From contig CAZBTP010000001.1 of NCBI GenBank assembly GCA_964494915.1, positions 6,792 through 70,791 on the forward strand: DNA of 64,000 bases, in the 5' to 3' direction. The notes below the pieces were generated by a model, which was not told the origin of the DNA, made no database searches, and saw only the letters and a list, made by a program, of their open reading frames with translations. Source of the stretch: Candidatus Woesearchaeota archaeon (lineage in GTDB: Archaea; Nanobdellota; Nanobdellia; Pacearchaeales; GW2011-AR1). A program made the translations under genes and the position numbers. Positions within the stretch are counted from its first letter, which is position 1. Each line of letters opens with the position of its first letter. Below are positions 1,656 to 51,782 of the stretch, piece by piece.

Positions 1656-3107
1656 ATGGCAACAAAAAAATTCTACCTCACAACACCAATCTACTACCCA
1701 AATGACATACCTCATCTTGGGCATGCATATACAACAATCGCAGCCGATGCTCTTGCGCGCTGGCACAGACTACTAGGAAACAAGGTATTCTTCCTTACAG
1801 GAACAGACGAACACGGAAAGAAAATAGCGCGAACCGCAGAAAAAGTAGGAAAAACACCGGAGCAATTTACTGATGCCCTTGTCCCTGAATTCAAAAAAGC
1901 ATGGCACACACTCAATATAACCTACGACCGGTTTATCCGTACAACAGAAGAAGATCATAAAAAAGTCGTTCAATACATCCTCGAGAAAGTCAACGCGAAC
2001 AACGATATCTACAAAGGAATGTACGAAGGACTCTATTGTACAGAGTGCGAGGCATACTACACAGAAAAAGACGTTCCAACCGCCCACTGCCCAATCCACA
2101 AAAAGCCGCTGGAAACACTCAAAGAAGAGTCTTACTTCTTCAGACTTTCAAAATACCAACCTTTTCTCCTCGATTTCTACAAAAAAAATCCAGAATTCAT
2201 CTCGCCAAAAAAGAGAAAACAAGAAATAATCAACCGGGTGAAAGAAGGCCTCAGGGATTTCAGCATCTCACGAACCTCATTCAGCTGGGGCATCCCTCTT
2301 CCATTTGACAAAAAACACATCACCTACGTTTGGTTCGATGCGCTTATCAACTATCTCTCGGGCGTTGATATCCTAAAAAACAAAAAACAATTCTCAACCT
2401 TCTGGCCAGCAGATGTTCACCTCATTGGCAAAGACATCCTCTGGTTTCATGTTGTTTACTGGCCTGCCATGCTCAAATCAGCAGGTATTGAACTTCCAAA
2501 GAAAGTATTTGCACACGGCTTTCTTACCCTTCATAATGAGAAGATAGGAAAATCAGCAGGCAACGCAATCACCATCCAGACACTTATCAATTATGCAGGC
2601 GTTGACACAGCACGCTATTTCCTTCTTCGATCAACACCCTTCGGCGAAGACGGTGACTTCTCAGAACACGCACTCAAAGAAAGACACAATAACGAACTTG
2701 CAAACAAACTCGGAAATCTCGTTACAAGGACAACTGCTCTTGCGGAAAGGTATGGTATCGAGAAGACCCTAATAAAAAGATTATCATCAAAACAACTCTA
2801 TACAAAGATAACAAACTATCTTAAGAATCTTGAATTTGATAAAGCTTTGAATGAGATATTTTCTTTTATTGATCGATGCAACAAATTCATCCAAACGAAA
2901 AAACCCTGGGAAACAAAAGACAAAGAAGTCTTATATGAACTCTGTAATGCCCTCAAAGACATTGCAATCCTCCTCTCCCCATTTCTACCAGAAACATCAG
3001 AAAAAATAGCAACAATACTCAATACCCCAATAACGCTCAAAAACCTCAAAAAACCCCTCCTCATAAACAAAATAAAAAAATCAGAAATCCTATTTAAAAA
3101 GATTTAG
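1656..3107 (+). CDS. metG: methionyl-tRNA synthetase (short form without C-terminal tRNA-binding domain)
   Basis: HLGH motif (PHLGHAYT), KMSKS-like KIGKSAGN, and a Cys-x2-Cys...Cys-Pro knuckle (CTECEAYY...HCP). Confidence 0.93.
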   Translation: MATKKFYLTTPIYYPNDIPHLGHAYTTIAADALARWHRLLGNKVFFLTGTDEHGKKIARTAEKVGKTPEQFTDALVPEFKKAWHTLNITYDRFIRTTEEDHKKVVQYILEKVNANNDIYKGMYEGLYCTECEAYYTEKDVPTAHCPIHKKPLETLKEESYFFRLSKYQPFLLDFYKKNPEFISPKKRKQEIINRVKEGLRDFSISRTSFSWGIPLPFDKKHITYVWFDALINYLSGVDILKNKKQFSTFWPADVHLIGKDILWFHVVYWPAMLKSAGIELPKKVFAHGFLTLHNEKIGKSAGNAITIQTLINYAGVDTARYFLLRSTPFGEDGDFSEHALKERHNNELANKLGNLVTRTTALAERYGIEKTLIKRLSSKQLYTKITNYLKNLEFDKALNEIFSFIDRCNKFIQTKKPWETKDKEVLYELCNALKDIAILLSPFLPETSEKIATILNTPITLKNLKKPLLINKIKKSEILFKKI

Positions 3108-6100
3108 CCGAGACTCTTTCGACATCCAAACGGATAATCAAACCACAAGAACTTAAAACACCGTCGACAAACGCCGAAACCGTTCTCGCTAACACAAACA
3201 TTGCCATCGGGACACTTAAGAAGTTCATAATCCAAAACATTCCCAGCACAATAATACACTCTTAGATTACGCCCCGGATAATAATCAGGATTACAAATAT
3301 CCTTTTGTTCAACGTACCCATCTTCCTGATTCCCTGTCACTGTATTCTTCACCTTTTTTATTGAGTCGTACGAGAGCGGGTCAGATTCCTTTTGTTGAGC
3401 AGCGCTGATCTGACCTCCGGTTCTGGTAGGGAATACTCTCCCCACAGGGTCATTGCATGTGTATCCAAGTTCCGTGGCATCAGTTTGTTCTTGGTTGTTT
3501 GTTTGCGAAGTTTGCGAGGAGGAAAATTTAATTTCTACATTAATTCCGCCATCAGACGTTATCTCTTTAACTTTTATCCTTAAATCATTATCGGGATCAT
3601 AAAACTCTTTTCCAATATTTAAGAAAGAATCTACAAAGTCGGTTCTTGTTATATCTTTAGATTCCTTTGGATAATCTGGCAAAGATTCAGGAGTCATATC
3701 AAGTAAATAGGTTGACCACGATTCATAATCTTCGGGTAAAAGGCCTCTAATTAAAATTCCATTAATATTGATTCCCATTCCCTCAAGACGTTTAAGTTTT
3801 TCGTCAAACCCAATAGATTGTCTAAATTCCAATAAATAAGAAGAAATTTCCAGTCCTTCTTTGTCGGATATAGATATATGATTCTTTAATGGAACTTTTA
3901 TTACTTTTAATTTAGAATTTACTTCTTCCAGAGGATAGAGAGTATAAACTCCGCTTTGCGAAACAACTTGAAAATTACTCTCTTCAAACCAGCCCAGACG
4001 TTTTTTGTGGTTCCCATTAAAATGATAAGCATACAACCTACCTCCCATAACATCAAACACATCGCTATAAGGGTCTATCGAGCACTTGGAGTAATCTTTA
4101 GTTATGATCTCTTTTCCACATTCATAAGTTATTGCATGTCCATTAATACCGAAACTATGTCCCAGCTCATGTGCAAAAACAGTATTTGCGGCAGGAAAAT
4201 GATCTTTTCCTCCCAAACTATCTCCATACGGAGAGAATATTTGGTCGAAGTAAATATGGGAAATGCCTATTTTTATTCTTCCGTCAGGAGTATCAATGAC
4301 TTTTTTTCCAAAAGATGAACTACCAAAAGCACCAGGGCAATTCTCGCGGAATACAATAATAATTCTATCATAATCCGGATAATAAACTTCATTATCGGCT
4401 ATCTCAAAAATTTCTTGATCGGTTCGAGAGCAAGAATCCTCTCCCTCTTTTAAATGATACCATCCATAAACATCCCCTGTCAACCATGTCTTTCCATAGG
4501 ACGCCTCTGTAATAAAACTAGTTATTGATTTTTGTGCCCCAGTATCAAAAATTGCCTTCTGGTAATCTGCTAGAGGGGTTTCACCATTATCGTTTAACAA
4601 ATCTACTAAAATCACAGCAATTTTTTGCTCACCTGATACATCGCCAATTTCAGCACAGCTCGATGCAGTAAAGGTTCGCAGGGGAGAATTCACTCCGTTC
4701 GATATCCATACACTATAGGTACTTCCCTCTTGCAAATTAAACCCGCTTCGTTCAATATATGTTCCAGAACTCGCGTGCCAGAATGTTCTCTCGCCACCGG
4801 ACGGCGCAACAACACTCATTGTTGGAGAAAGTACATAGCTATCCCAATAATCAGTTGGATATTCAGTCGTGTACGAACCAGGAGCAACAGCAATCCAATA
4901 TTTCCCACTTGAGGGGGCACTACCACCGCTCCACGAAATTGTTGCTTTTGACACACCATTCTCACACGAAAGAGACACACTAGGCTTGTTCACTGGCGTG
5001 ACAGAAGAAGTATTCTGAGTAGGTATTGGTTGCGTTGGTTGTTGTGTACTACAAATAGGAGTCGTTATACTAGTCATTCCTGAATTCTTGCCGTTAGAAA
5101 CCCAGAAACTATAAGCTTTATTTTCTTCCAAAACAAATCCTCCTTGTTGAATATATGTTCCATCTTTTGCGTGCCAGAATGCTCTCTCGCCACCATTCCA
5201 AGCAACAACACTTGTTGTAGAAGAACTAACATAGGTATCCCAATAATCAGTTGGATAGGTTGTGTGTAAGCCAGGAGCAACAGCAATCCAATATTTCCCA
5301 CTTGAGGGGGCACTACCACCGCTCCACGAAATTGTTGCTTTTGACACACCATTCTCACACGAAAGAGACACACTAGGCTTGTTCACTGGCGTGACAGAAG
5401 AAGTATTCTGAGTAGGTATTGGTTGCGTTGGTTGTTGTGTACTACAAATAGGAGTCGTTATACTAGTCATTCCTGAATTCTTGCCGTTAGAAACCCAGAA
5501 ACTATAAGCTTTATTTTCTTCCAAAACAAATCCTCCTTGTTGAATATACGTTCCAGAACTCGCGTGCCAGAATGTTCTCTCGCCACCGGACGGCGCAACA
5601 ACACTTGTCGTAGAAGAAGTAATATAAGTATATGTAGAAGAATTAACATTAGTACCTATAAAAGAACTGACATACGTATCCCAGTAATCAGTCGGATAGG
5701 TTGTGTGTGAACCAGGAGCAACAGCGATCCAATATCTCCCACTTGAAGGAGCACTACCACCACTCCATGAAATTGTTGCTTTTACAACGTTTCCATCACA
5801 AAACGCATTCACACTTGGCGCATTCGTCGGTATTATCTGAGGGCTCGTCCCGCTACATCTTTGGGCAGAAAATCTTGTTATTAGCGAATTTGAATTTGCA
5901 CCCTTCGATACCCATACACTATACTCAGCTCCATCTTCTAACGAGAATCCTCCTTGTTGAATATACGTTCCAGAACTCGCGTGCCAGAATGTTCTCTCGC
6001 CACCGGACGGCGCAACAACACTCATTGTTGGAGAAAGTACATAGCTATCCCAATAATCAGTTGGATAGGTTGTGTACGAACCAGGAGCAATAGCGATCCA

Positions 6101-6319
6101 ATATCTGTCACTCGCAGGATTAGGATCGCCACTCCAAACGATACTCGCTTTTGAGACACTATTTTCACAATACGTTTGCACAAAGGGTTGCGTAACCGGA
6201 CTTAATTGCGGACGCTTAAAACCGAACCATTCAAGAATATCATCGCCAAGCCCAGCAGAAACAAAGGGAATACCTAATAGTAAAACAATAACAAATCCAA
6301 GATAAATAATAGTTCTCAT
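3104..6319 (-). CDS. giant secreted modular protein with four approximately 100-aa W/Y-rich Cys-bounded repeat modules, a zinc metalloprotease domain (M6/InhA-like, HELGH) and a Cys-rich C-terminal domain
   Basis: Signal peptide MRTIIYLGFVIVLLLGIPFVSA. Repeated modules VSKATISWSGGSAP..YWIAVAPG..YPTDYWD..GGERTFWH..YSFWVSNG. PT-rich linkers QQPTQPIPTQNTSS. Protease region EQKIAVILV...EASYGKTWLTGDVYGWY...HELGHSFG. C-terminal GYTCNDP...CRRCFKFLWFDYPFGC. Confidence 0.7.
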   Translation of the reverse strand: MRTIIYLGFVIVLLLGIPFVSAGLGDDILEWFGFKRPQLSPVTQPFVQTYCENSVSKASIVWSGDPNPASDRYWIAIAPGSYTTYPTDYWDSYVLSPTMSVVAPSGGERTFWHASSGTYIQQGGFSLEDGAEYSVWVSKGANSNSLITRFSAQRCSGTSPQIIPTNAPSVNAFCDGNVVKATISWSGGSAPSSGRYWIAVAPGSHTTYPTDYWDTYVSSFIGTNVNSSTYTYITSSTTSVVAPSGGERTFWHASSGTYIQQGGFVLEENKAYSFWVSNGKNSGMTSITTPICSTQQPTQPIPTQNTSSVTPVNKPSVSLSCENGVSKATISWSGGSAPSSGKYWIAVAPGLHTTYPTDYWDTYVSSSTTSVVAWNGGERAFWHAKDGTYIQQGGFVLEENKAYSFWVSNGKNSGMTSITTPICSTQQPTQPIPTQNTSSVTPVNKPSVSLSCENGVSKATISWSGGSAPSSGKYWIAVAPGSYTTEYPTDYWDSYVLSPTMSVVAPSGGERTFWHASSGTYIERSGFNLQEGSTYSVWISNGVNSPLRTFTASSCAEIGDVSGEQKIAVILVDLLNDNGETPLADYQKAIFDTGAQKSITSFITEASYGKTWLTGDVYGWYHLKEGEDSCSRTDQEIFEIADNEVYYPDYDRIIIVFRENCPGAFGSSSFGKKVIDTPDGRIKIGISHIYFDQIFSPYGDSLGGKDHFPAANTVFAHELGHSFGINGHAITYECGKEIITKDYSKCSIDPYSDVFDVMGGRLYAYHFNGNHKKRLGWFEESNFQVVSQSGVYTLYPLEEVNSKLKVIKVPLKNHISISDKEGLEISSYLLEFRQSIGFDEKLKRLEGMGININGILIRGLLPEDYESWSTYLLDMTPESLPDYPKESKDITRTDFVDSFLNIGKEFYDPDNDLRIKVKEITSDGGINVEIKFSSSQTSQTNNQEQTDATELGYTCNDPVGRVFPTRTGGQISAAQQKESDPLSYDSIKKVKNTVTGNQEDGYVEQKDICNPDYYPGRNLRVYYCAGNVLDYELLKCPDGNVCVSENGFGVCRRCFKFLWFDYPFGCRKSLG
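4877..5547. repeat. intragenic tandem duplication in gene 3104-6319: about 280 nt of perfect identity at 390-nt offset
   Basis: The string from ccaggagcaacagcaatccaatatttcccacttgagggggcactaccaccgctcc to ccttgttgaatata occurs identically at about 4877-5157 and about 5267-5547. Confidence 0.8.
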
Positions 6320-6420: not shown

Positions 6421-6620
6421 CAATCAATCCAGAACCCTCTCGTTAATACCCTTCCACTCACGAAAGGCTTTTTCATACCGCTCCTCATAAACAAAATAAA
6501 AAAATCAGAAATCCTATTTAAAAAGATTTAGCCGAGACTCTTTCGACATCCAAACGGATAATCAAACCACAAGAACTTAAAACACCGTCGACAAACACCG
6601 AAACCATCTTCATTGATACT
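6421..6620. repeat. mosaic intergenic spacer made of copied gene 3' ends (NTase 11663 region, MetRS 3057-3107, secreted gene 3108-3185)
   Basis: 6425-6485 matches 11667-11727 with 3 mismatches. 6481-6531 equals 3057-3107 exactly. 6532-6612 equals 3108-3188 with about 1 mismatch. Confidence 0.85.
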
Positions 6621-6662: not shown

Positions 6663-9600
6663 CTATAAGTTCCTTTTGACATCCTCGAGATACTTGCTGT
6701 AGCCGCTTAGTACCTTTTGACATCCAAATGGGTAATCGAACAACCAGAAGTTAAAGCATCTTCGACAAGCACCAACCCAAAAACCAAGATTCTTATCATT
6801 GATACATATATGGTTCTCTGGACACTTAAGTATTTCATATTTTAGTGCATTCCCAACACAATAAGGCACCTGCAGATCATAACCAGAAGGACTACAAAGA
6901 TCTGATACTTCAAAATCTCCTACTCCTTGATTTCCCGTAACAGTATTCTTCTCCTTTTTTATTAAGTCGTATGAGAGGGGATTGAGTATCATATCTTTAT
7001 TACTTCTACCTGGTCTTGTAGGGAATACTCTCCCCGCAGGGTCATTGCATGTGTATCCAAGCTGTCCTGCGTCAACAACAGCAGGCGCAGGCGGTGTTGT
7101 TGATCCTTCAGCTCCACTACATGTAACACTAACGCTATTGCTATTCGCGTCTAATCCTTCATCACCGCCATCGATGTAATAGGTATGACTTCTGACAGAG
7201 GCTTCAAAACTAGTTGACAGCAAGGTCTGCCCGATAACTACATCACTTGGTTGCTCAACAAACTTTACAACTTGATTATTCTCTACAACATTATATCCGC
7301 TAACTGAATTAATACTGGCCCATGATAAATCAACGCGTGTACCGCTGCAGAAGCCAGCTAGTGAGATCTCGAACTGTGTTGGTGTTGGCGTTGTTGTACC
7401 CGGTGTCGGACTTTGAACATCTCGGGGCGGACTAATACAATAATAGATCACTCTTCCATTTCTATCTTCAAACGATCCTATAACACTATCGCTCCCGCAA
7501 CCGTTATACTGAACATACACATTTGTCAAGAACACGGTATTTTCTGAAAATGAAGACTTCCTCACACACTGATACACGACCGCCCCCTTTCCGTCAAGGA
7601 ACCAACTGCCAACACGATCGCCCACGATCCCACAACCTTCTGCACTATCGCGGAAGTAAACATGAGTAACATACTCTTTTCCAGGACTACCAACAGACTT
7701 CCGTACACAATGATTAATCCGCCGTCCATTAGCATCATCAAACCAACTTGTAACATCATCACCCCCACAAGTATCATACTGAAAATAAGCCCCTTCCACA
7801 ATCCCTATTGAAACAGTCAAGGGAGGCGTCGTAATACCATTCGCCTTTAACTCTCGGAAGATATTCCTCGCCAAACCAGGATCGCGTTGGCTACCAAAAA
7901 ATCCCCCAGGTTTCTCAAACAAGAAATCAACCAGTGTCTCCTGAAATGCAGCATCAATCCTTCCAGAACTCAACCTGCTTTGCAACGTATCAGCCATCGA
8001 ATTACTCAATTCGCGAACACGCTGAACAGCAGAACTACCTAGATCAGAACTGAGTGTGGCATCATCAACAATAAGTTCTTTCAATACCTTCTCGCCAAGT
8101 TCAGCATTCCGCGGCGTATTCAAAAGACCACGAACACCATAGAGGTAATCTAACAAACTAATCTGAAACTCAACATCAATATTACGCGCATTAAACTTCG
8201 TCTCTAAATTACTTGCCATCCCTGGATCTTTATCCTGTAAATAACTGATAACTTCGTCTTTCAACGCACCGCTAATCATATATCCATTTAACACAATAGG
8301 TAATGTTCCTTCTCCACCTTGTTCTCCTCCAGTTCTACCAGATACAATATCAGCACAGCTCATTGCGGTAAAGGTTTGCAGAAGAGAATTCACTCCATTT
8401 GATATCCATACACTATAGGCACCCCCTTCCTGCAAGGTAAACCCACTCTGTCCGATATATGTTCCAGAACTCGCGTGCCAGAATGTTCTCTCGCCACCAG
8501 ACGGAGCAACAACACTGGTCGTAGAAGAACTAACATACGTATCCCAATAATCAGTTGGGTAGGTTGTGTGTGAGCCAGGAGCAATAGCGATCCAATATCT
8601 CCCAGTTGAAGGAGCAGCGCCACCAGACCATGAAATCGTTGCTTTTGAGACGCCATTCTCACACAAAAGGGACACACTAGGCTTGTTCACTGGCGTGACA
8701 GAAGGAGTATTCTGAGTAGGTGTTGGTTGCGTTGGTTGCTGTGTACAAATAGGAGTCGTTATACTAGTCATCCTTGAATTCACGCCGTTAGAAACCCAGA
8801 AACTATAAGCTTTATTTCCTTCCAAAACAAGCCCACTTTGTCCGATATATGTTCCATCTTTTGCGTGCCAGAATGTTCTCTCGCCACCAGACGGAGCAAC
8901 AACACTTGTCGTAGAAGAACTAACATATGTATCCCAATAATCAGTTGGATATTCGGTCGTGTACGAACCAGGAGCAACAGCGATCCAATATCTCCCAGTT
9001 GAAGGAGCAGCGCCACCGCTCCACGAAATCGTTGCTTTTGCAACGTTTCCATCACAAAACGGAGTTAAAGATGGAGGATTCACCGGCGCTATCTGAGGAG
9101 GGGTGGCTGTAGTGGTTGGCGTCGGTGTAGGTTGTGGAGTTAATTGTTGCGTACAAATAAGGGCACGGAAATGGGTCCTTCCTGAATTCACGCCATTAGA
9201 TACCCAGTAAGTATACTCTTTCGTTGGTTCCAAAACAAATCCTCCTTGTTGAATATACGTACCGTCTTTCACATGCCAAAATGTTCTCTCGCCACCAGTT
9301 GGAACAACAACACTTGTTGTAGAAGAACTTACATAGCTGTCCCAGTAATCAGTTGGATAGGTTCCATATAAGCCGGGAGCAACAGCAATCCAATATCTTC
9401 CACCTGAGGGAGCACCACCACCGCTCCACGAAATCGTTGCTTTTGCAACGTTTCCATCACAAAACGGAGTTAAAGATGGAGGATTCACCGGCGCTATCTG
9501 AGGAGGGGTGGCTGTAGTGGTTGGCGTCGGTGTAGGTTGTGGAGTTAATTGTTGCGTACAAATAAGGGCACGGAAATGGGTCCTTCCTGAATTCACGCCA

Positions 9601-10361
9601 TTAGATACCCAGTAAGTATACTCTTTCGTTGGTTCCAAAACAAATCCTCCTTGTTGAATATACGTACCGTCTTTCACATGCCAAAATGTTCTCTCGCCAC
9701 CAGTTGGAACAACAACACTTGTTGTAGAAGAACTTACATAGCTGTCCCAGTAATCAGTTGGATAGGTTCCATATAAGCCGGGAGCAACAGCAATCCAATA
9801 TCTTCCACCTGAGGGAGCACCACCACCGCTCCACGAAATCGTTGCTTTTGAAACATCATTTTCACAAAACGTAAGCACCGTTGGAGTCACGCGGCAACCT
9901 GAGGCAATAAACTGTATTATTTGAGAGTTCGCCCCATTTGAGATCCATACACTATAAGTACTTCCACTTTGCAAGGTAAACCCACTTTGTTCAAAATATG
10001 TTCCGGAACTTGCATGCCAGAATGCTCTATCGCCACCAGTTGGAACAACAACACTTGTCGTAGAAGAACTTACATAGCTGTCCCAGTAATCAGTTGGATG
10101 AGTTGCATGTACACCAGGAGCAACAGCAATCCAATATCTTCCACCTGAGGGAGCACTACCACCGCTCCACGAAATCGTTGCTTTTGAAACATCATTTTCA
10201 CAGTAAACGCGTACTCCGATTTGATTTATAGGTTCCGGACTCAATTGCGGACGCTTAAAACCAAACCATTCAAGAATATCATCGCCAAGCCCAGCAGAAA
10301 CAAAGGGAATACCTAATAGTAAAACAATAACAAATCCAAAATAGATTGTAGTTCTCATCAT
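6663..10361 (-). CDS. giant secreted modular protein paralog with six W/Y-rich repeat modules, no HExxH domain, a triplicated small Cys motif, an FN3-like segment and the shared Cys-rich C-terminal domain
   Basis: Signal peptide and first 40 aa nearly identical to gene 3104-6319, as are the 5'-end nucleotides 10270-10361 versus 6228-6319. Same module consensus and C-terminal GYTCNDPAGRVFPTRPG...CRRCFNFWLFDYPFGCQK. Confidence 0.7.
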   Translation of the reverse strand: MMRTTIYFGFVIVLLLGIPFVSAGLGDDILEWFGFKRPQLSPEPINQIGVRVYCENDVSKATISWSGGSAPSGGRYWIAVAPGVHATHPTDYWDSYVSSSTTSVVVPTGGDRAFWHASSGTYFEQSGFTLQSGSTYSVWISNGANSQIIQFIASGCRVTPTVLTFCENDVSKATISWSGGGAPSGGRYWIAVAPGLYGTYPTDYWDSYVSSSTTSVVVPTGGERTFWHVKDGTYIQQGGFVLEPTKEYTYWVSNGVNSGRTHFRALICTQQLTPQPTPTPTTTATPPQIAPVNPPSLTPFCDGNVAKATISWSGGGAPSGGRYWIAVAPGLYGTYPTDYWDSYVSSSTTSVVVPTGGERTFWHVKDGTYIQQGGFVLEPTKEYTYWVSNGVNSGRTHFRALICTQQLTPQPTPTPTTTATPPQIAPVNPPSLTPFCDGNVAKATISWSGGAAPSTGRYWIAVAPGSYTTEYPTDYWDTYVSSSTTSVVAPSGGERTFWHAKDGTYIGQSGLVLEGNKAYSFWVSNGVNSRMTSITTPICTQQPTQPTPTQNTPSVTPVNKPSVSLLCENGVSKATISWSGGAAPSTGRYWIAIAPGSHTTYPTDYWDTYVSSSTTSVVAPSGGERTFWHASSGTYIGQSGFTLQEGGAYSVWISNGVNSLLQTFTAMSCADIVSGRTGGEQGGEGTLPIVLNGYMISGALKDEVISYLQDKDPGMASNLETKFNARNIDVEFQISLLDYLYGVRGLLNTPRNAELGEKVLKELIVDDATLSSDLGSSAVQRVRELSNSMADTLQSRLSSGRIDAAFQETLVDFLFEKPGGFFGSQRDPGLARNIFRELKANGITTPPLTVSIGIVEGAYFQYDTCGGDDVTSWFDDANGRRINHCVRKSVGSPGKEYVTHVYFRDSAEGCGIVGDRVGSWFLDGKGAVVYQCVRKSSFSENTVFLTNVYVQYNGCGSDSVIGSFEDRNGRVIYYCISPPRDVQSPTPGTTTPTPTQFEISLAGFCSGTRVDLSWASINSVSGYNVVENNQVVKFVEQPSDVVIGQTLLSTSFEASVRSHTYYIDGGDEGLDANSNSVSVTCSGAEGSTTPPAPAVVDAGQLGYTCNDPAGRVFPTRPGRSNKDMILNPLSYDLIKKEKNTVTGNQGVGDFEVSDLCSPSGYDLQVPYCVGNALKYEILKCPENHICINDKNLGFWVGACRRCFNFWLFDYPFGCQKVLSGYSKYLEDVKRNL
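9016..9825. repeat. perfect 405-bp (135-codon) tandem duplication, two copies, inside gene 6663-10361
   Basis: About 433 nt starting caccgctccacgaaatcgttgcttttgcaacg is identical at 9013-9445 and 9418-9850. The encoded module LTPFCDGNVAKATISW...QIAPVNPPS appears twice verbatim. Confidence 0.9.
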
Positions 10362-10575: not shown

Positions 10576-10983
10576 CTAGCTATTTTTCAATTCCTCGACA
10601 ATTTTTTTGCATTTTTCTATTGCTTGTTTTGCGGTTTCATAATCCATCCTGTTTCCGTAATAAGTAAGGGAGTTTCTTTTATACCTTAAGTCATCAATTA
10701 ATATATACAAATCCTCTCTTTTTAGAACATCCCTTAAATAATAACCTAAGCAAATATGGTTTAATATGTTGAATCCTTTTTTGAAAGCCATTGCCTGCAA
10801 TAATTCAAGCAATGAAGTATAATAATCTTCAAATATAAAATTGCAGTTTTTTTCATTCACTTCTTTAATTAAGTTCATTCTTTCGCTTGCAGTCTCTTGT
10901 AAAGATTCTGCTCTTTTTAGGTCAGGAGTTATAGTTTTAGCTGATTTATTGATTAAGCAATCATCCCAGTTTGCTTCTTTCAT
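10576..10983 (-). CDS. HEPN-domain protein (partner of the adjacent minimal nucleotidyltransferase)
   Basis: 135-aa helical protein overlapping by 4 nt (ATGA) with the upstream MNT gene. R-x(4-6)-H-like region LRYKRNSLTYYG. Typical MNT-HEPN pair arrangement. Confidence 0.55.
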   Translation of the reverse strand: MKEANWDDCLINKSAKTITPDLKRAESLQETASERMNLIKEVNEKNCNFIFEDYYTSLLELLQAMAFKKGFNILNHICLGYYLRDVLKREDLYILIDDLRYKRNSLTYYGNRMDYETAKQAIEKCKKIVEELKNS

Positions 10984-11513
10984 CTAAAAACCTCCACAAA
11001 TCCATTTAATAAAAAGCCGTTTATAACATTATTTGCTAAATGAGGATTTGATAATTCATTAAGATTTTTATGCTGGAATACTTGTATTCTTCTTTTAAGT
11101 AATTTTTCAAATTTTTCAAAAATTACTTTTCTCTTTGAAGGGGTTTCTATATATAAGTCAATATCGCTTTCTTCTGTGTCTTCTCCTTTTGCAAAAGAAC
11201 CGAAAAGAACAATTGCGGGGTTGCTTAATTCCTGTTTTAGATACTCTATAAGCCCTGATTCATATATCTTTTTTATATTGCAGAGCTTTTTTTCCAAGAG
11301 GTATTTTTCACTGCTCCTATTTGCTGTGTAGAAATTAACATTGCCTGTTTTAACTGCTGTTAAAATGCTTTCTTTTTCCAGTTCTTTGCAATATCTTATA
11401 ACAGAAGGAAGAGAAAGTTTAAGGGTTCTTTCTATCTCTCTTACCCTAAGTTTAGCATTAGGATTAACAAAGAAGTATTCACTGATTGTTTGCTTGATAT
11501 CTTTTCTTTTCAT
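10980..11513 (-). CDS. minimal nucleotidyltransferase (MNT) with N-terminal winged-helix domain
   Basis: GSFAKGEDTEESDIDLYIE matches GS-x(9-13)-DxD of the pol-beta NTase superfamily. N-terminal wHTH-like LSLPSVIRYCKELEKESIL. Confidence 0.7.
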   Translation of the reverse strand: MKRKDIKQTISEYFFVNPNAKLRVREIERTLKLSLPSVIRYCKELEKESILTAVKTGNVNFYTANRSSEKYLLEKKLCNIKKIYESGLIEYLKQELSNPAIVLFGSFAKGEDTEESDIDLYIETPSKRKVIFEKFEKLLKRRIQVFQHKNLNELSNPHLANNVINGFLLNGFVEVFR

Positions 11514-19119: not shown

Positions 19120-19506
19120 ATGGGCAGCTTAATAGAAATAAATGACACGTTAAAAATATCAAAAGAAAGAGGTTTTCCTGAAGGTTTAACTTTAGACTCT
19201 CATGTTTCAAATTCATCGATCTCTTCAAGGTTTATTGGCCAAGAATTTGAGTTTTGGAACAATAATGAAAGATTATACCACAGACCTCCAACAAGAGTAT
19301 TTTTAGTTGAAGAAGTAGATGGAAAATGGCTTTATTGGGGCAATGCTTTAATCACATCGCAAACAATAGAAGAAGGCAGAACTAAAGGAAGGTATAAGAT
19401 CGTTAAAATCTATCAGCCAGATTTTCAGAGACAGATAACTATTGAAGAATCTCCTAAGGATAAAAGCTATTTTCCTGATAGCCCAAAAAGTCTTCTTCCA
19501 TCATAA
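19120..19506 (+). CDS. hypothetical protein
   Basis: 128-aa ORF bracketed by short hairpins containing cccacaat at 19040-19069 and 19509-19537. Confidence 0.4.
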   Translation: MGSLIEINDTLKISKERGFPEGLTLDSHVSNSSISSRFIGQEFEFWNNNERLYHRPPTRVFLVEEVDGKWLYWGNALITSQTIEEGRTKGRYKIVKIYQPDFQRQITIEESPKDKSYFPDSPKSLLPS

Positions 19507-35042: not shown

Positions 35043-35128
35043 CGTCCCGGAGAGGACTCGAACCTCTGACCCCATGGTGTCTGTACGACGATAACAGCCA
35101 TGTGCTCTGCCAGCTGAGCTACCGGGAC
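35043..35128 (-). tRNA. tRNA-Asn (anticodon GUU) with 13-nt intron after position 37
   Basis: Cloverleaf GUCCCGG-UA-GCUCAGCUGGCAGAGC-A-CAUGG[CUGUUA+UCGUCGUACAGAC+A]CCAUG-GGGUC-AGAGGUUCGAGUCCUCU-CCGGGAC-G. No CCA encoded. Confidence 0.75.
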
Positions 35129-48896: not shown

Positions 48897-51782
48897 TTAG
48901 AACCGACAACTGTCTCCACGACATGAACGTCCACCACAGCCCGTATATAACGACGAGGGATTCCCACAGGAGTCAAACCAGTAAACATTCCCATTATAGC
49001 AGCTTTTGTATGCAAAATCCGAGCAACATCCTGAAAAATCGAATAAGCAATTGGAATTGCAACCTAATAGTCCACGGTCCCAACAAAAGTTTCCACAGGT
49101 TTTTCCGTTCAATTTGTTTCCTTCGCATTGTTCACCGGGTTCTATTAGGCCGTTTCCACAAATGGCCTGCACCCGGTCTATTGAAGAGGGATTTTCCAAG
49201 ACTACAAGAGCAACTGGCAGGCTTCCACTCCTCCGGAATTGGTTTATCGACTTCAGATAAAGGTTTTCCTTAATTGCGGGTTTGATTTGGGCATTTTGGA
49301 AATTGATTACAGTTTGGGGGTTAACGGTCTGGGAACCAATAACGATATTAGAGGTATCCAACAATTCAAATACCGCACTCGGCCGGTTGTCTGAATTGGA
49401 GTTTATTGAAACCAGTTTCATTTTCATGGTTTGGCCTTCAAAAATCCCTTTGCCTGTCAAGAAGATCATTGATCCCACGTCAATGGTTTTTGTTTCAAAT
49501 GTTCTGTCGCTGGGTTGTTCGATGCAGTAAATTCTTTGTCGGGTTGAACAATCGGATAATGATCTTTTGGTTCTTTCCCATTCAATCGTATTAGTCCCGT
49601 CAATTATCCCAGAAGCGCCTTTTACGGTGGCGCTATGTTGGTCAAAAGTCCAGTCCTGGCAAGTGAGAAGAGCACCCAAAGTCGGAGTCAATCGGTTGCT
49701 TGGTCTCAAAGGTTTTTTTCCAGTCCAAACAAAAGAGTTGACCAACGTTTTTGTTTCATCCAAATTAATGGGGTGTCGAATAGTTCCATCGGTAAGGTCA
49801 TTCCAATCATTTGCGATCCGTGTCCCGTCGAGTAACTGGTAGGGAAAGGGTGTTTCAGCGATTCCATTTCCTGGTTCCATAGCGGAAGTGCCCAGATAGG
49901 CTTTCCATCTTCCTCCCAAGTTGGCGTTGTCCGCGAGTATTTGGCATTGAAAGTCTGCCCCGCGTGTTCCACCGAGGTTTCCTGAAAATTGAGTGCTCGA
50001 AACAAACACTCGAAAGCGATTGCAATCCAATTCGCAGTTCGCAAGGTTTTCGTAGGGTTCGCAGACATTATTGCCACAAGATAAAGGAGAATAGGGTGGA
50101 AAATCAATTTTAACTTGGGTTTCTTCTAAGTTCGTCTTTAAATTGGTGATTCCAACATCGTTAAATGGTGCAATAACTGTTTGACCAGTTGGGATAATCG
50201 GCTTCAGCCAATCCCACTTATCATTTGTTCGCGGATTAGAATGGGGAGTCATATCGAGTAAAATAGGAGACGAGAAATCGTAATCGCTTAACTTTTTATG
50301 AGCCATCGGGCCGTTTATATCGTACTTTTCGCCACCATATATAGCGTCTTTGCCCAGGGGCTGTCGGAATTCAAGATAAAAAGTATAATCCTGCCTTGCT
50401 CCGCACGGAATTTTTAAGACTTTGGTGTTCAGACCCGCTCGTTCAAGCGGAGTTAACGCAATAATTGCATCCTGAGTCACATCCACTATGTTCCCTGAAT
50501 TAAACCAACCCAGTGTTTCTTTTTGGATGCTATTAAAATGTCCGTCGAGGCCGCCCATAATATCAAAATAATCACCATACTCGAAAACAGAACATGCATT
50601 CGGACTGTGAGAAAAAGAGACATCTCCGCATTCCAAACTGCTGGAGTGAGGCAGCCCCAAATTGTGCCCAAATTCATGAATAAATACGTTATAAAAAACA
50701 TCATCGAATCGATATTCTGCTATCAACAGAACCGAAGTTAAAGTTGAACTGCCATCTTGCGTATTAATAAAAGACGATCCGAGAGCAAATCCCAGACCAC
50801 ATGACACTCCGGTGGAAACAATGACTGCGATTCGTTGATAATCCGGATAGAAAATATCAGCATCGGCTACCTCCAGTGCCCTCTGAAGTAGTCCGTGAGA
50901 AGAACACACTTCTACGTCTCCTGAAGTTTCAATGTGGATGATATCCGAGGGTGTATCTCCTCCTTGGTACCATCCAAACACATTGCCAGTAAGCCATGTT
51001 TTACCGTAAGAAACTTCTTTGTAATAAGAATCAACCGAATCCGCATTGGTTAAACCGAATATGCGATCGTGAATTTCTTCTGGAGATACAGTGGGGGTAG
51101 GGCCATCCGAAAAAGCAACTAAAATTACGGCGATTTTTTGTTCTCCCGTCGTCGGAATTTGCGTCCTATCAACCTCAGCACCTGCAATGCCGAGTACTTG
51201 GTCCGCGTTCGCGAGGATAACCTGATTGTCAAGCGCGTACCCACTTAAAACCACTTCTGACCCTGAGTTGGTTTTAGGTTCCCCCATTGCAAAAAATAGT
51301 TCGGATCTCCCAGTTTTTTCTTTCAGAAAGTACCGCTGTTTATACTTTTTGTTTTCGAAGTCGTCCTCGTGCCAGACTTCAAATGTTCCTTGTTTTCGAA
51401 TGGACTGTTCAATATATAGTTTTATCCCTGGAGGCAACCGGTTTCGGGTTTCTCCCGGAAGTGCGAGTTCTAAAAAAGCCTTTGGGTCTTTTTTGATTAA
51501 TTGTAGCATTTTTTGTTTGCGTTGTTTGGCGAAGGTCACTCGTTTGGAGAGTGGAAGAGCATTATTCAGGAGTTGTGTATCGAACTTTTTGATTTGTTCC
51601 TTGTCGCTTACAGCGCTGGCAAAATCCGTTGCAGTGTTTTTTGGTCGAGAAGATGCAATCCCGGAATTTTCTAATATTAAATTTGGACCAAAAACCGAGC
51701 TTTGGATAACTGCTAGTATGCCCACAGCGGAGATAATAAAAACGACGAGTATCCAATTTAGCTGGTGCTTGAACGATCTCAC
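48897..51782 (-). CDS. secreted zinc metalloprotease, M6/InhA-like, with Cys-rich C-terminal region. GTG start.
   Basis: N-terminal TM/signal. EQKIAVILVAF...DSYYKEVSYGKTWLTGNVFGWY...HEFGHNLGLPH (HExxHxxGxxH). C-terminal Cys-rich modules. The start codon GTG lies inside the 31-bp repeat. Confidence 0.7.
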   Translation of the reverse strand: MRSFKHQLNWILVVFIISAVGILAVIQSSVFGPNLILENSGIASSRPKNTATDFASAVSDKEQIKKFDTQLLNNALPLSKRVTFAKQRKQKMLQLIKKDPKAFLELALPGETRNRLPPGIKLYIEQSIRKQGTFEVWHEDDFENKKYKQRYFLKEKTGRSELFFAMGEPKTNSGSEVVLSGYALDNQVILANADQVLGIAGAEVDRTQIPTTGEQKIAVILVAFSDGPTPTVSPEEIHDRIFGLTNADSVDSYYKEVSYGKTWLTGNVFGWYQGGDTPSDIIHIETSGDVEVCSSHGLLQRALEVADADIFYPDYQRIAVIVSTGVSCGLGFALGSSFINTQDGSSTLTSVLLIAEYRFDDVFYNVFIHEFGHNLGLPHSSSLECGDVSFSHSPNACSVFEYGDYFDIMGGLDGHFNSIQKETLGWFNSGNIVDVTQDAIIALTPLERAGLNTKVLKIPCGARQDYTFYLEFRQPLGKDAIYGGEKYDINGPMAHKKLSDYDFSSPILLDMTPHSNPRTNDKWDWLKPIIPTGQTVIAPFNDVGITNLKTNLEETQVKIDFPPYSPLSCGNNVCEPYENLANCELDCNRFRVFVSSTQFSGNLGGTRGADFQCQILADNANLGGRWKAYLGTSAMEPGNGIAETPFPYQLLDGTRIANDWNDLTDGTIRHPINLDETKTLVNSFVWTGKKPLRPSNRLTPTLGALLTCQDWTFDQHSATVKGASGIIDGTNTIEWERTKRSLSDCSTRQRIYCIEQPSDRTFETKTIDVGSMIFLTGKGIFEGQTMKMKLVSINSNSDNRPSAVFELLDTSNIVIGSQTVNPQTVINFQNAQIKPAIKENLYLKSINQFRRSGSLPVALVVLENPSSIDRVQAICGNGLIEPGEQCEGNKLNGKTCGNFCWDRGLLGCNSNCLFDFSGCCSDFAYKSCYNGNVYWFDSCGNPSSLYTGCGGRSCRGDSCRF

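Follow-up and report, generated by a model that had tools for sequence, protein, structure and literature searches.

Periscope Proteins, among them SasG, Rib/alpha C, Sgo_0707 SHIRT and CdrA, are bacterial proteins with tandem folded domains of high sequence identity, in which the number of repeats varies between closely related strains and for which intragenic recombination has been proposed (Whelan et al. 2021, PMC8201768). Their linkers may contain proline residues, and the published account covers bacteria only, with no mention of archaea (PMC8201768). Here we describe a comparable locus in a stretch of 64,000 nucleotides (nt) from Candidatus Woesearchaeota archaeon (GenBank assembly GCA_964494915.1, contig CAZBTP010000001.1, positions 6,792 to 70,791 of the forward strand). 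We refer to this full 64-kb stretch as the window and give all coordinates as positions within it unless stated otherwise. Two genes on its reverse strand, gene A (6663-10361) and gene B (3104-6319), encode proteins with an N-terminal array of modules that resemble fibronectin type III (FN3) domains, and long exact DNA repeats lie within both arrays. We consider it quite probable that whole module-plus-linker units are gained and lost in frame in both arrays, by unequal homologous recombination or template switching, alongside patchy gene conversion. That the locus represents the first archaeal (DPANN) Periscope-like system, in which coexisting and near-identical Woesearchaeota strains differ in the number of FN3-like modules on two secreted effectors, is a tentative proposal that we hold with somewhat more doubt than conviction.

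We compared the window with itself using a script and found two long exact repeats. In gene A, 9013-9445 is identical to 9418-9850, a single exact run of 433 nt at an offset of 405 nt, which confirms to the base a claim made in an earlier note on this DNA. In gene B, 4878-5155 is identical to 5271-5548, an exact run of 278 nt at an offset of 393 nt. The same note had reported a long perfect repeat in gene B at an offset of 390 nt; the repeat exists, but the offset was wrong, and at 390 nt gene B holds no run of 15 nt or more. Tandem Repeats Finder delimited an array at 8775-9854 in gene A (period 405, 2.7 copies) and another at 4750-5631 in gene B (period 393, 2.2 copies), and no further long tandem repeats were found in the window. 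Both periods are divisible by three, corresponding to 135 and 131 codons, and the 405-nt unit is composed of a 103-amino-acid (aa) module and a 32-aa linker. The remaining module pairs are diverged, with DNA identities of 60-85%, synonymous divergence (dS, Nei-Gojobori) of 0.27-1.03 and a ratio of nonsynonymous to synonymous divergence (dN/dS) of 0.17-0.54. Because of this divergence, chance is excluded as the source of the exact runs: at an assumed background identity of 95%, the probability is about 2e-10 for the 433-nt run and about 6e-7 for the 278-nt run. Judged by the dS of the other pairs, the perfect tracts appear to be young, and the dN/dS values point to purifying selection on the module fold.

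The protein encoded by gene A consists, in order, of a signal peptide, modules A1-A5, a domain of unknown function, three short Cys repeats, an FN3-like segment and a Cys-rich C-terminal domain. Five domain matches to the module profile were obtained (E 1e-58 to 1e-61), and there was no sequence match to gene A in Pfam, NCBIfam or PDB. The first exact copy of the duplication extends from 16 nt inside A2, across the 32-aa linker, to 44 nt inside A3, and the second runs from A3 into A4. The 433-nt run exceeds one period by 28 nt; this excess is CAAAAGCAACGATTTCGTGGAGCGGTGG, which codes for (S/A)KATISWSGG and is common to A2, A3 and A4. Module A3 combines an A4-type upstream part (linker plus CDGNVA) with an A2-type body, and the switch between the two lies within the 28-nt tract (Table 1). 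Such a chimera bears the signature expected from one unequal crossover or template switch between A2 and A4 in a presumptive four-module ancestor, and we regard the duplication in gene A as very probably real.

Table 1. Features of the gene A and gene B arrays, in window coordinates.
Feature	Position	Strand	Details
Gene A	6663-10361	-	1232 aa; from the list of open reading frames and the translation
Exact period-405 region	9013-9850	-	838 nt: two unit copies (A2 or A3 body plus 32-aa linker) and 28 extra nt
Module A2	9558-9866	-	Module coordinates
Module A3	9153-9461	-	Module coordinates
Module A4	8745-9056	-	Module coordinates
28-nt putative crossover tract CAAAAGCAACGATTTCGTGGAGCGGTGG in A3	9418-9445	-	Same letters at 9823-9850 (A2) and 9013-9040 (A4)
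Duplication-specific junction	9417-9446	-	30-nt span; junction-specific k-mers starting at 9446 seen from k=39
Gene B	3104-6319	-	1071 aa; from the list of open reading frames and the translation
278-nt repeat span	4878-5548	-	671 nt; copies 4878-5155 and 5271-5548 at offset 393
B1/B4 identity tract	4761-4861 (B4) = 5967-6067 (B1)	-	101 nt, exact match

Gene B encodes a signal peptide, modules B1-B4, an M6-like zinc metalloprotease core with the motif HELGH and a Cys-rich C-terminal domain. The NCBIfam model TIGR03296 (M6 domain) matched residues 583-811 (229 residues) with an E value of 3.4e-6 and 27.2 bits, compared with a curated cutoff of 110.8; the core falls short of the M6 family threshold despite its HELGH motif and appears best named M6-like. 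This sub-threshold match aside, neither the modules nor the parts outside the repeats had a significant sequence match in Pfam, NCBIfam or PDB, and the protease has no sequence relative in PDB. A 961-aa secreted paralogue of the M6-like core is encoded elsewhere in the window (48897-51782, reverse strand; 33% identity, HEFGHNLGLPH); it is devoid of FN3-like modules, and its Cys-rich C terminus is unlike that of gene B. The 278-nt tract of gene B takes in the C-terminal third of one module (its final 105 nt), an 84-nt linker and the N-terminal third of the module that follows (its initial 89 nt); one copy spans the B2/B3 boundary and the other B3/B4. Between the copies, the module cores are diverged, B2 carrying a 16-aa insertion and B3 unique substitutions. 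In its layout, the tract looks more like a conversion-like mosaic than a clean recent duplication. The earlier note had proposed recent duplication or gene conversion, and both parts of this proposal find a counterpart, the first in the exact A4/A2 chimera of A3 and the second in the mosaic of gene B.

Among 5.8 billion protein clusters, the only close match to the gene A protein was P0001, which at 1097 aa is exactly 135 aa shorter. P0001 comes from a 77.8-kb ENA contig, ERZ27284378:k139_474069 (L001/L006). Across window positions 1-20361 this contig is base-identical to the window save for nine single-nucleotide polymorphisms (SNPs), the loss of 405 nt in A and the loss of 1206 nt in B, and there are no further differences in A, B or the A-B spacer. 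Gene A has five modules in the window and four in the ENA contig; gene B has four and one, respectively. The short B allele is a 2010-nt gene for a protein of 669 aa, the single module of which is a B1/B4 hybrid. Identity to the window extends over 353 nt when anchored at the 5' end of the allele and over 1758 nt when anchored at its 3' end, with an overlap of 101 nt, which places the junction within the tract common to B1 and B4; the missing 1206 nt amount to three modules. The earlier note had suggested comparing strains or bins as a check for length polymorphism, and this contig of the same population is shorter in both arrays. The arrays were described at the time as substrates for copy-number (phase or antigenic) variation, and copy-number variation agrees with the ENA contig. 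On/off phase variation, as in a contingency locus where a change in repeat number shifts the frame or the promoter spacing, was ruled out, since all length changes (405, 393 and 1206 nt) are divisible by three and both alleles keep intact reading frames, such that only length or valency would change. The notion of module expansion fits gene A only; the difference in gene B is a deletion or a collapse.

Over about 20 kb, the window and the ENA contig show no point differences beyond the nine SNPs. These fall within 89 nt (10672-10760) of a gene at 10576-10983 on the reverse strand, which is paired with a nucleotidyltransferase gene (possibly HEPN-type), and cause three amino-acid changes. The cluster looks like a recombination tract, and no donor was found elsewhere in the window. 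The population is also present, as fragments, in the sibling assemblies ERZ27284375 and ERZ27284376. One contig of ERZ27284376 (L010) matches the window at 100% identity and has its end precisely at the first SNP of the cluster. Because of the cluster and of this contig end, we conclude that at least two strains coexist. L010 and another contig of ERZ27284376, L008, end at window positions 19457-19458 with a 2-nt overlap, which suggests another assembly-breaking feature or a coverage gap. Exact look-up of the window's own A and B proteins found no record. In word-indexed searches, which are unreliable here, the complete gene A sequence retrieved its own shorter allele and nothing else; an alignment of nine modules returned nothing and missed even P0001, making it a weak negative. 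Low-complexity words from the linkers probably saturated the candidate list.

We compared the window with the ENA alleles by k-mer content (k from 21 to 141) and weighed whether the length differences are a product of assembly. The five-module A allele of the window has its own junction-specific k-mers spanning 9417-9446 (k=39 being the smallest tested k above the 30-nt span), and its assembly needs reads that carry the duplication junction. This bears on the idea that an assembler or scaffolder over-expanded or mis-joined the array and that the true gene A has four modules, as it does in the only other assembly of the population; the copies are base-perfect, and nothing inside them tells one from the other. 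We consider this very improbable: the junction of A4-type upstream sequence and A2-type body is unique and must have been present in reads, it falls within a tract common to the parent modules and keeps the frame, as a biological crossover would, and the additional B2 and B3 of gene B carry unique sequence, including the 16-aa insertion, that cannot be invented. The converse explanation has more in its favour. Here, the window's allele of each gene is the only real one, and all copy-number differences are collapses, with a short-read de Bruijn assembly having skipped the 405-nt duplicate loop and short-cut gene B via the B1/B4 identity, leaving no biological length polymorphism. At every k tested, all k-mers of the four-module A allele are also present in the window, and the allele is exactly what graph collapse of a perfect tandem duplicate gives. 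The short B allele shows no novel k-mers at k of 101 or below and might in principle be a chimera carried over from an iteration at low k. The contig names (k139_, k119_) follow what we take to be MEGAHIT naming and would indicate a multi-k short-read assembler; the sibling assemblies are fragmented around the locus, and the 766-kb contig of a relative stops inside a perfect module repeat (P0005, below). Tandem repeats are themselves a cause of assembly errors documented in one report (PMC6868369). The length differences are known from assembled contigs of two metagenome assemblies rather than from reads or long-read genomes, and if the window derives from short reads, the count of identical A units may exceed two. 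When public protein sets were searched with a chimeric query designed to pick up fragmentary contigs bearing B2, B3 or the A3 junction, only P0002 was returned, a weak negative. All of these points weigh against a biological gain and loss of units, and the earlier warning that the arrays are a likely site of assembly collapse was well founded with respect to the short A allele and to the contig of the relative. However, at k=139 the short B allele has 37 139-mers that the window allele cannot supply, and because of these it is not a simple path through the window's k=139 graph. Judging from the behaviour of unitig assemblers, the ENA contig would not be expected to run unbroken through both arrays if a full-coverage alternative branch were present. 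Moreover, the nine-SNP cluster and the third assembly that breaks there point to at least two strains. We therefore rate collapse as the sole explanation as unlikely. For gene B, the balance leans towards a biological length difference; for gene A, the call is close and falls just short of even.

Recombination that adds and removes units must also be weighed against an array of fixed copy number, the identity of which is maintained by continuous, selection-driven gene conversion. The exact tract in gene B, with its sharp boundaries inside modules and diverged cores on its flanks, is what this would produce, and so are mosaic module identities across the genes (A4-B2 88%, A5-B4 83%). Yet the exact run in gene A is longer than one full period (433 compared with 405 nt) and its boundary is the chimeric crossover junction, which argues for a duplication rather than a patch; the difference seen in the second assembly is one of whole units, and long exact matches occur within the genes and not between them (maximum 76 nt). 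We consider a stable, conversion-maintained array to be distinctly unlikely. A further point against the crossover as proposed is that the 28-nt tract is short for RadA-type recombination, and replication slippage is equally possible. A diversity-generating retroelement was briefly considered and rejected, the repeats being exact rather than adenine-biased variants; reverse transcriptase was not searched for.

Our preferred mechanism, gain and loss of units by recombination, would start from a misalignment, at replication or repair, of neighbouring modules that have identical stretches of DNA in common. Through unequal homologous recombination or template switching, identical tracts of 28-433 nt would then allow units of 131-135 codons to be inserted or lost in frame, and patchy gene conversion alongside would homogenise segments. 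The perfect 405-nt duplication in A would represent one such event with the 28-nt tract as its crossover site, the 278-nt tract in B a mosaic of the conversion type, and the 1206-nt shorter B allele, presumed to belong to a co-occurring strain, a crossover between B1 and B4 within their 101 nt of identity. The N-terminal array, which bears the cargo (a protease or the unknown domain, with the Cys-rich C-terminal domain), would thereby change in length or valency, and this change might plausibly tune how far it reaches towards, or how avidly it binds, a host cell or substrate.

The five modules of A and four of B are 103-119 aa long with a cysteine at both ends, and are joined by linkers of 9-32 aa rich in Thr, Pro and Gln. 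No Pfam model matches any of 16 modules. AlphaFold2 models the module as an eight-strand beta-sandwich, with a predicted local distance difference test score of 76 from nine sequences and of 79 from 13. The positions conserved across the family are C1, W12, Y23, I25, Y83, W86, N89, G90, S93 and C103. The FN3 superfamily has a seven-stranded beta-sandwich with a Trp in strand B and a Tyr-corner motif (Y-x-V-x-V-..-N-..-G-x-S), and we take the conserved module positions to resemble these features. A Foldseek search of the model against PDB found no significant match, which speaks against this assignment, and the best TM-score, about 0.5, was to FN3 domains. On the strength of the model, the module would be a divergent, Cys-bounded, FN3-like domain, with a disulfide presumably joining its ends, rather than an established member of Pfam fn3.

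An exhaustive search of 1.84 billion cluster representatives with the module profile matched nine proteins at E <= 1e-3. These comprise the two alternative alleles of A and B, three true relatives (P0003, P0004 and P0005) and further matches that are weak or of low complexity; scanning JGI metagenome contigs with the profile detected no relative. With six genuine members counted among the 1.84 billion representatives, the module family appears to be nearly orphan and lineage-restricted. P0003 has three modules that are 79-89% identical to each other, P0004 pairs the module with a metzincin-type protease (HEIGHTLGLVH) and P0005 has two 100% identical modules with a Cys-rich region between them; the identities in P0003 and P0005 indicate that the repeat pattern recurs in the family. 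The DNA for P0005 (L004 8408-9638; JGI 3300029288, Ga0265297_10000017) contains an exact 424-nt repeat at an offset of 807 that reaches the end of the 766-kb contig, and the gene is probably truncated or mis-resolved by assembly. Among GTDB species representatives, a single related locus was found, in a metagenome-assembled genome of a sister species named 'Candidatus Woesearchaeota archaeon' (L005 9356-12085; CAYPUL010000001.1). It holds one A-like gene of 909 aa with three modules, which is syntenic and directly abuts metRS; gene B and the two small genes found at 10576-11513 in the window are absent. The linkers of this A-like gene consist of (Thr-Pro)n alone and are specified by microsatellites of the hexamer ACACCA, in 15-19 copies, a potential second source of length variation. 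The modules of the window are 57-70% identical to these three, and there is no positional orthology. Within the genome, modules are 63-96% identical to one another at the protein level (63-89% without the near-identical adjacent pair, of which there is only one); across genes, the edge modules A5-B4 and A1-B4 are 83% and 76% identical, respectively, and the internal modules A4-B2 88%. This likeness fits concerted evolution or a lineage-specific expansion.

Genes A and B are tandem paralogues. Their N termini are 81% identical over 52 aa and their Cys-rich C-terminal domains 56% identical. The longest exact match between them is 76 nt, in the region of the signal peptide; because longer exact matches are found within A or B and none between, homogenisation is mainly intragenic. 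The sole hydrophobic segment of either protein is N-terminal and followed by VSA-G, and no second transmembrane segment or known anchor was recognisable. We read this N terminus as a putative Sec signal peptide, and both proteins are predicted to be extracellular, whether secreted or on the surface. The A-B spacer contains a relic at 6477-6605 (reverse strand), a 129-nt copy of 3053-3181 with 98% identity. The copied piece consists of the last 78 nt of gene B and the antisense of the last 51 nt of metRS, which points to a footprint of tandem gene duplication with a boundary inside metRS, or to later conversion. A contig from a sibling sample (L007) terminates at window position 3135, within this copied piece.

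The window encodes an intron-containing tRNA-Asn, and the ENA contig carries genes for ribosomal protein L15e, an intein-containing aRF1 and MCM; in this archaeal context, we assign the locus to a Woesearchaeota-like DPANN archaeon. ARAGORN reported the tRNA gene, at 35043-35128 on the reverse strand, as 'tRNA-Stop(tta)'. We rejected a suppressor tRNA: the gene is an archaeal tRNA-Asn(GUU) with an intron, and the Rfam alignment reads C32 U33 G34 U35 U36 A37 and then shows about 14 inserted nt at the canonical 37/38 position. According to precomputed Pfam matches, the intein of the aRF1 gene (eRF1 family; L006 1774-4185, outside the window) has a LAGLIDADG endonuclease domain.

DPANN archaea are believed to live in attachment to other cells, and little is known of the proteins by which they contact their hosts. 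The A/B locus is a concrete and testable candidate for rapidly evolving machinery of host or substrate interaction, and A and B may act in contact with either. If coexisting strains do differ in module number, module gain and loss by recombination would outpace point mutation here and could tune the contact between episymbiont and host or the reach of the protease, and the idea of variable-length surface proteins would extend from bacteria to archaea. Apart from the SNP cluster, public short-read assemblies of this genome disagree only at the A/B arrays, and because of this disagreement, protein lengths and domain counts in databases are untrustworthy for such genes without long reads. We see the finding as modestly interesting for DPANN biology and also as a caution about assemblies.

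By analogy, the closest concept for the A/B arrays would be the Periscope Protein class, and the mechanism we propose is an ordinary one. Both involve tandem folded domains, mostly Ig-like or beta-sandwich, very high DNA identity between neighbours, proteins that are secreted or on the surface (as predicted for A and B) and intragenic recombination as the proposed cause. Long, near-identical DNA repeats that code for folded domains are present in A and B (units of 405 and 393 nt, exact over 433 and 278 nt, with beta-sandwich models), and repeat number differs between the two metagenome assemblies, a comparison that for Periscope Proteins rests on long-read genomes. The A/B host is a DPANN archaeon. 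The A/B array directly follows the signal peptide and the cargo is C-terminal, whereas Periscope Proteins have an N-terminal ligand domain and a C-terminal wall anchor, with a rod-like stalk that holds the functional domain away from the anchor, and A and B have no recognisable anchor. Only two of the A/B units are perfectly identical, the others being 63-89% identical. The A/B modules have terminal cysteines, and their linkers are long and rich in Thr, Pro and Gln, which argues against a rigid rod; the array may instead resemble beads on a string. Compared with M6 metalloproteases (immune inhibitor A or InhA-like), gene B shares the HExxH motif and the TIGR03296 match, but its N-terminal module array and Cys-rich C-terminal domain lie outside the architecture of that family. 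In overall plan, A and B are also like fibrillar adhesins and the FN3-stalked extracellular enzymes of bacteria and archaea, which have the same succession of a signal peptide, FN3-like repeats as stalk or spacer, Pro/Thr linkers and a catalytic or binding cargo.

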